Shown in pieces: positions 34,294 through 34,632 of a DNA stretch of 64,000 bases. A program made the position numbers and the translations under genes. Source of the stretch: Escherichia coli (GTDB lineage Bacteria > Pseudomonadota > Gammaproteobacteria > Enterobacterales > Enterobacteriaceae); NCBI RefSeq assembly GCF_050920415.1, contig NZ_CP169309.1. One strand, written 5' to 3'. The stretch's first letter is position 1; each line of letters starts with the position of its first letter. The notes below the pieces were generated by a model, which did no database searches, had not been told where the DNA came from, and saw only the letters and a program-made list of their open reading frames with translations.

Positions 34294-34632
34294 ATGAAAA
34301 AGATTGATGCGATTATTAAACCCTTCAAGCTGGACGATGTCCGCGAAGCACTGGCTGAAGTCGGCATTACCGGCATGACGGTCACCGAGGTGAAAGGTTT
34401 TGGCCGCCAGAAAGGCCATACCGAGCTGTATCGCGGCGCGGAGTATATGGTGGATTTTCTGCCAAAAGTGAAAATTGAGATTGTCGTGCCGGACGACATT
34501 GTCGATATCTGCGTAGATACGATTATTCGCACGGCGCAAACCGGCAAAATCGGTGACGGTAAAATTTTCGTCTTTGACGTGGCGCGGGTTATTCGTATCC
34601 GTACCGGTGAAGAGGATGATGCGGCAATTTAA
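34294..34632 (+). CDS. glnB: Nitrogen regulatory protein P-II
   Basis: 112-aa [23 protein letters not shown]... with T-loop (RGAEY) uridylylation site. Confidence 0.95.

Follow-up and report, generated by a model that had tools for sequence, protein, structure and literature searches.

The glnB gene of the window (that is, the whole stretch of 64,000 nucleotides that was analysed) encodes isoleucine at codon 72, where threonine is found in E. coli K-12, and this Thr72Ile difference is very probably a genuine inherited missense polymorphism in a functional GlnB, presumably neutral or nearly so. The change from ACC to ATC characterises Escherichia cryptic clade I and also segregates in about 5% of ordinary E. 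coli. The Ile72 allele is both catalogued and common and therefore counts as already known; Thr72Ile is an ordinary natural variant. What had been flagged as a deviation from K-12 in a highly conserved regulator is best regarded as a catalogued natural allele, and not as an error or a new function, and it matters little.

The identity of the gene is clear (Table 1). Its product is identical in 111 of 112 residues to the E. coli PII protein of PDB entries 1PIL, 2PII and 5L9N, with residue 72 as the sole mismatch, and it matches Pfam PF00543 (P-II) over profile positions 1-102 of 102 with a score of 119.7 bits against a cut-off of 25. The protein passes the cut-off of the NCBIfam equivalog for GlnB (NF008111, 240.8 against 202) and misses that of the equivalog for GlnK (NF007946, 176 against 181), and it can therefore be named GlnB and not GlnK. 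The same gene is annotated as glnB in the near-identical genome NZ_CP169399.1. The gene order of the window, namely purL, glmY (recognized with Rfam), glrK/qseE, qseG, glrR, glnB, the convergent hmp and glyA, is that of K-12, so that the two loci share both the glrK-qseG-glrR-glnB order and the convergent hmp.

Table 1. Features in the window (positions count from its first letter).
Feature	Position	Strand	Basis
glnB CDS, PII-1 nitrogen regulatory protein	34294..34632	+	ORF, 112 codons plus stop; PDB match, Pfam, NCBIfam
glnB codon 72, ATC (Ile) where K-12 has ACC (Thr); variant base 34508, C->T	34507..34509	+	
Putative Shine-Dalgarno-like AAGGAA, ending 4 nt before the glnB ATG	34284..34289	+	read from the sequence
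Perfect 13-bp hairpin with 4-nt loop, in the glnB/hmp gap	34642..34671		folding
AsrC (antisense of rseC)	13847-14678		Rfam, above gathering score
rncO	17462-17676		Rfam, above gathering score
OhsC	21088-21164		Rfam, above gathering score
GlmY	30362-30509		Rfam, above gathering score

The T-loop motif YRGAEY with Tyr51 is present in the GlnB of the window, as are G37, R38, Q39, K58, G87, G89, K90, R101 and R103. All of these are invariant in an alignment of 82 PII sequences, and the window protein keeps every residue that is invariant across that alignment. From the established PII structures we take Tyr51 to be the uridylylation site and the other residues named to be those that bind ATP and 2-oxoglutarate. 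The closest known system is the GlnB of K-12 (PII-1, b2553), which shares with the window protein the length of 112 amino acids as well as the Tyr51 T-loop and the invariant ligand-binding residues, and which differs in having Thr72 and, in its gene, by 19 synonymous nucleotides. The Ile72 protein should act as an ordinary GlnB: it would respond to 2-oxoglutarate and ATP/ADP, undergo uridylylation by GlnD, and regulate both NtrB and the glutamine synthetase adenylyltransferase. Its formation of trimers, its uridylylation by GlnD and its control of NtrB and GlnE are predicted by analogy, from the 99.1% identity to the characterised protein.

A scan for consensus promoters and terminators around glnB called nothing. 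It missed the hairpin in the 43-nt gap between the convergent glnB and hmp, which has a minimum free energy of -24.2 kcal/mol (z = -5.4 against shuffles) and no T-run, and which is probably the shared transcript-end hairpin of the two genes. Two minus-strand ORFs located inside glnB (34254-34547 and 34282-34539) have no support and were regarded as mechanical.

Throughout its length the window is collinear with K-12 (about 2.658-2.722 Mb, in reverse orientation), to which it shows 95.3% identity over 59 kb. The 22 kb around glnB have at least 97.8% identity to just 18 of 5426 complete 'E. coli' genomes and at most 95.4% to all of the others. Over these 22 kb the identity reaches 98.8% to 2013C-4282 and 98.1% to EC42405, both of which are named as complete Escherichia cryptic clade I genomes (Okuno et al. 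2023, PMC10100065). According to the same work, the average nucleotide identity is above 98.3% within the clade and above 95.9% between the clade and E. coli sensu stricto. Because of this split in the 22-kb identities, and because these two strains are listed as clade I, the window can be assigned, as far as its sequence tells, to a strain of Escherichia cryptic clade I; a literature search on STEC_7v in connection with this clade gave nothing. The possibility that the divergence from K-12 stems from a local recombination patch was considered and rejected, since the 59 kb are collinear at the identity given above and the 22 kb show the same split; the divergence is thus lineage-wide and not local. 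An origin in clade I means that every gene of the window can be expected to differ from K-12 by about 5% and to show scattered amino-acid differences, and it is useful mainly for calibrating other findings made in the same window.

Strain MFDS1022581, in which a GlnB identical to that of the window (Ile72) is annotated as WP_000717691.1, shows a single mismatch to the window in 12339 bases. This mismatch is at window position 31533, in codon 310 of glrK/qseE, which is GAT (Asp, as in K-12) in the window and GAG (Glu) in MFDS1022581. Either, therefore, the window derives from a strain very closely related to MFDS1022581 and not from that record itself, or the record of MFDS1022581 carries a private change. 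The DNA allele of glnB in the window is also that of MFDS1022581 and of assembly GCA_040836545.1.

Re-reading of the ORF bore out the codon and the local translation that had been given in the earlier note, and the alignment to the reference glnB that it had called for was run: the substitution is real and consists of one C to T transition at the second codon position. Between the window and K-12 there are 20 nucleotide differences in glnB (94.1% DNA identity), 19 of which are synonymous third-position changes while the remaining one, T72I, is non-synonymous. This ratio of one replacement to 19 synonymous changes agrees with the expectation from purifying selection in a lineage that is about 5% diverged from K-12. 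The neighbouring proteins also carry replacements with respect to K-12, namely six in glrK, five in qseG, three in glrR, six in hmp and one in glyA. Given the divergence of the lineage and the one to six replacements in each of these neighbours, a single replacement in GlnB is unremarkable. In its DNA, glrR (32899-34233) is the most diverged gene of the neighbourhood, with 93.4% identity to K-12 and 80 synonymous codon changes, and with three amino-acid changes only.

The frequency of the allele was obtained with megablast probes of 55 nt that have the variant base at their centre, so that every 28-nt seed word spans this base. The denominator was the 5425 complete E. coli genomes found to have glnB, and the counts of the three probes sum to this number. 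ACC (Thr72), with the K-12 haplotype probe, was found in 5145 of them. ATC on K-12-type flanks was found in 262 ordinary E. coli, including ETEC H10407, NCTC122 and MRE162, and ATC on window-type flanks in 18 genomes, which are precisely the clade I group. Ile72 is therefore encoded by 280 of the 5425 complete E. coli genomes (5.2%) and by 18 of 18 complete cryptic clade I genomes. The ordinary E. coli that carry it were obtained from humans, pigs, chickens and water, with no obvious ecological partition. At least 1000 public contigs and 15802 index blocks of the collection contain the exact Ile72 protein; WP_000717691.1, which is identical to the GlnB of the window, belongs to cryptic clade I and to some E. 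coli such as ETEC H10407. Codon 72 of glnB could serve among many lineage-informative SNPs, and it is not specific to clade I, since the 262 ordinary E. coli also carry Ile72.

Ile72 is also found in other members of the genus. It is encoded as ATC in E. fergusonii (loci L011 and L012) and as ATT in E. whittamii, cryptic clade II (locus L007); the species were assigned to these loci by exact matching of the adjacent GlrR and QseG proteins. The species-representative genomes sampled for family-wide variability are a scattered listing without the other Escherichia species, such as E. albertii, E. marmotae and E. ruysiae. Thr72 was found in every non-Escherichia enterobacterial GlnB that was examined, which included those of Enterobacter, Citrobacter, Klebsiella, Salmonella, Leclercia, Pantoea, Erwinia, Serratia and Photorhabdus. 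Since all of these genera have threonine, this distribution identifies Thr as the older state in Enterobacterales and places the appearance of Ile72 inside Escherichia. Within Escherichia the isoleucine may have had one origin, followed by reversion or transfer, or several origins.

The alignment of 82 PII sequences and 112 columns was made from the matches listed in the scattered species-representative sample. Among these listed matches column 72 exceeds each of the other 111 columns in entropy; 14 different residues occur in it (Arg 22, Gln 18, Thr 11, Ser 8, Ala 6 and Pro 4, with Ile, Leu and Met among the rest). The fold and the invariant residues of the GlnB of the window are shared by E. 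coli GlnK (PII-2) and by other PII proteins, across which position 72 varies freely between Arg, Gln, Thr, Ser, Ala, Pro, Ile, Leu, Met and others.

In the AlphaFold2 model of the window GlnB, which has a mean pLDDT of 87, residue 72 is placed with a pLDDT of about 97 in the helix 67-81. The elements of the model (E2-8, H10-22, E29-39, E53-65, H67-81 and E89-95) give the beta-alpha-beta-beta-alpha-beta fold, and the T-loop is of low confidence, as expected. Along the helix 67-81 the conserved hydrophobic columns 70, 73, 74, 77, 78 and 81 alternate with the variable and mostly polar columns 69, 72 and 79. Because of this amphipathic pattern of conservation, residue 72, in the first turns of helix alpha-2, most likely faces the solvent on the outside of the trimer. 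Receptor contacts of PII proteins are mainly on the T-loop, and ligands bind in the cleft between subunits. Residue 72 is outside both the T-loop with its Tyr51 and the ATP/2-oxoglutarate cleft.

An exposed position in helix alpha-2, distant from the T-loop and from the ligand cleft, would make the substitution most likely neutral or nearly neutral. Two points can be set against neutrality. Thr72 is kept in all of the Enterobacterales GlnB examined outside Escherichia, so the site is not free to vary at short range, and the change from Thr to Ile swaps a polar residue for a beta-branched hydrophobic one.

These points bear on a different explanation, which we consider unlikely, namely that Thr72Ile is functionally meaningful, tuning the stability of PII or its contact with NtrB, GlnE, GlnD or another partner, and that selection fixed it in clade I. 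The presence of Ile72 in all of the complete clade I genomes is in agreement with this, as is the retention of Thr across the other genera of Enterobacterales. Moreover, its occurrence in E. coli sensu stricto, in E. fergusonii and, with another codon, in E. whittamii could reflect recurrence. However, neutral changes also become fixed in a lineage that is about 5% diverged, as the replacements fixed in each of the neighbouring proteins illustrate, and site 72 is the most variable of the family in the 82-sequence alignment of the matches listed. In addition, residue 72 does not belong to the conserved residues of the T-loop or of ligand binding, and in ordinary E. coli Ile72 coexists with Thr72, at 5%, in carriers that show no obvious ecological partition. 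A literature search for glnB T72I or Thr72 gave no relevant report of the variant and no functional data on the allele. Less probable still is a fuller version in which an adaptive Thr72Ile would alter the surface of helix alpha-2, and with it stability or partner contact, would have been fixed in clade I and would then have been recombined into E. fergusonii and some ordinary E. coli; such a change, if true, would show that PII has a functional surface beyond the T-loop.

Apart from the single-base nature of the difference, nothing suggests that the source genome was wrongly sequenced or assembled here. The identical ATC was found on one 55-mer in 18 independent complete genomes and on another haplotype in 262, the exact protein is on the many public contigs mentioned above, and the independent assembly GCA_040836545.1 matches the window at 100% identity across 6339 bases. 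Such independent recurrence of ATC excludes an error.

That the earlier note had the reference wrong, and that the reference GlnB has Ile72, is simply not the case, because K-12 MG1655 (NC_000913.3, b2553) has ACC, the structures 1PIL, 2PII and 5L9N have Thr72 and ACC is found in 94.8% of the complete E. coli genomes; the Thr72 that the note gave for E. coli P-II was right. A reference GlnB with Ile72, which that note had named as the observation that would overturn its reading, is not that of K-12 but does exist in other well-known strains, for example ETEC H10407. Its interpretation holds in so far as the reference has Thr, the window has Ile and the substitution is real. Its expectation that a real substitution would be unusual did not hold, as Ile72 is a RefSeq protein (WP_000717691.1), is present on at least 1000 contigs and in 280 of 5425 complete genomes, and falls in the most variable column of the family.

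Returning to the inherited polymorphism, the history of Ile72 in ordinary E. coli seems to involve recombination. In the carriers at loci L003, L004, L005 and L010 (the L003 type) most differences from K-12 are concentrated in glrR and in the initial two thirds of glnB (locus positions 1764-3215) and stop exactly at the codon-72 SNP, with only one more difference in the next 3.1 kb. This edge resembles the end of a recombination tract within glnB. The synonymous haplotype of the ordinary carriers has 95.9-96.2% DNA identity to the glnB of the window. The idea that Ile72 reached ordinary E. coli through a single import from clade I was weighed and found to be unsupported: the SNP is flanked by K-12-type synonymous sites (glnB positions 195 and 219-228), and many states of the divergent tract upstream match neither the window nor E. 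whittamii. Since the sites flanking the SNP are of K-12 type, the tract did not simply come from clade I.

The locus of E. fergusonii (L011 and L012, e.g. CP057458.1) has features of its own. Its glrK-qseG-glrR-glnB segment (positions 1-3344) shows 98.4-98.5% identity to the window and about 95.5% to K-12. Synteny stops 5 bp past the glnB stop codon, where adk-hemH-aes (3345-6339) replaces hmp-glyA, and the adk part has at most about 96% identity to clade I genomes. These identities, along with the end of the synteny, suggest a rearrangement breakpoint at this locus, perhaps together with gene flow that involved clade I and E. fergusonii.

Elsewhere in the window, the Rfam matches to AsrC, rncO, OhsC and GlmY (Table 1) are expected for such an E. 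coli-like chromosome region. Some intergenic sequences were also observed. About 127 bases (59879-60005), located directly upstream of the stability element of iscR (Rfam iscRS, 60007-60116), lack a counterpart in K-12. Judged by the ERIC primer sequences, they presumably resemble an ERIC/IRU intergenic repeat (ATGTAAGCTCCCGGAGATTCGT, and the reverse complement of AAGTAAGTGACCGGAGTGAGT). The segment 59125-59212 aligns twice to K-12. Finally, an intergenic repeat of about 120-130 bp occurs twice, at 7296-7414 and 37466-37597, with 87-90% identity between the copies. The first copy overlaps a match to Rfam ES036 (CssrF, 7338-7380), and fragments of this repeat, 32-34 bp in length, were found at 47896-47927 and 30053-30086.
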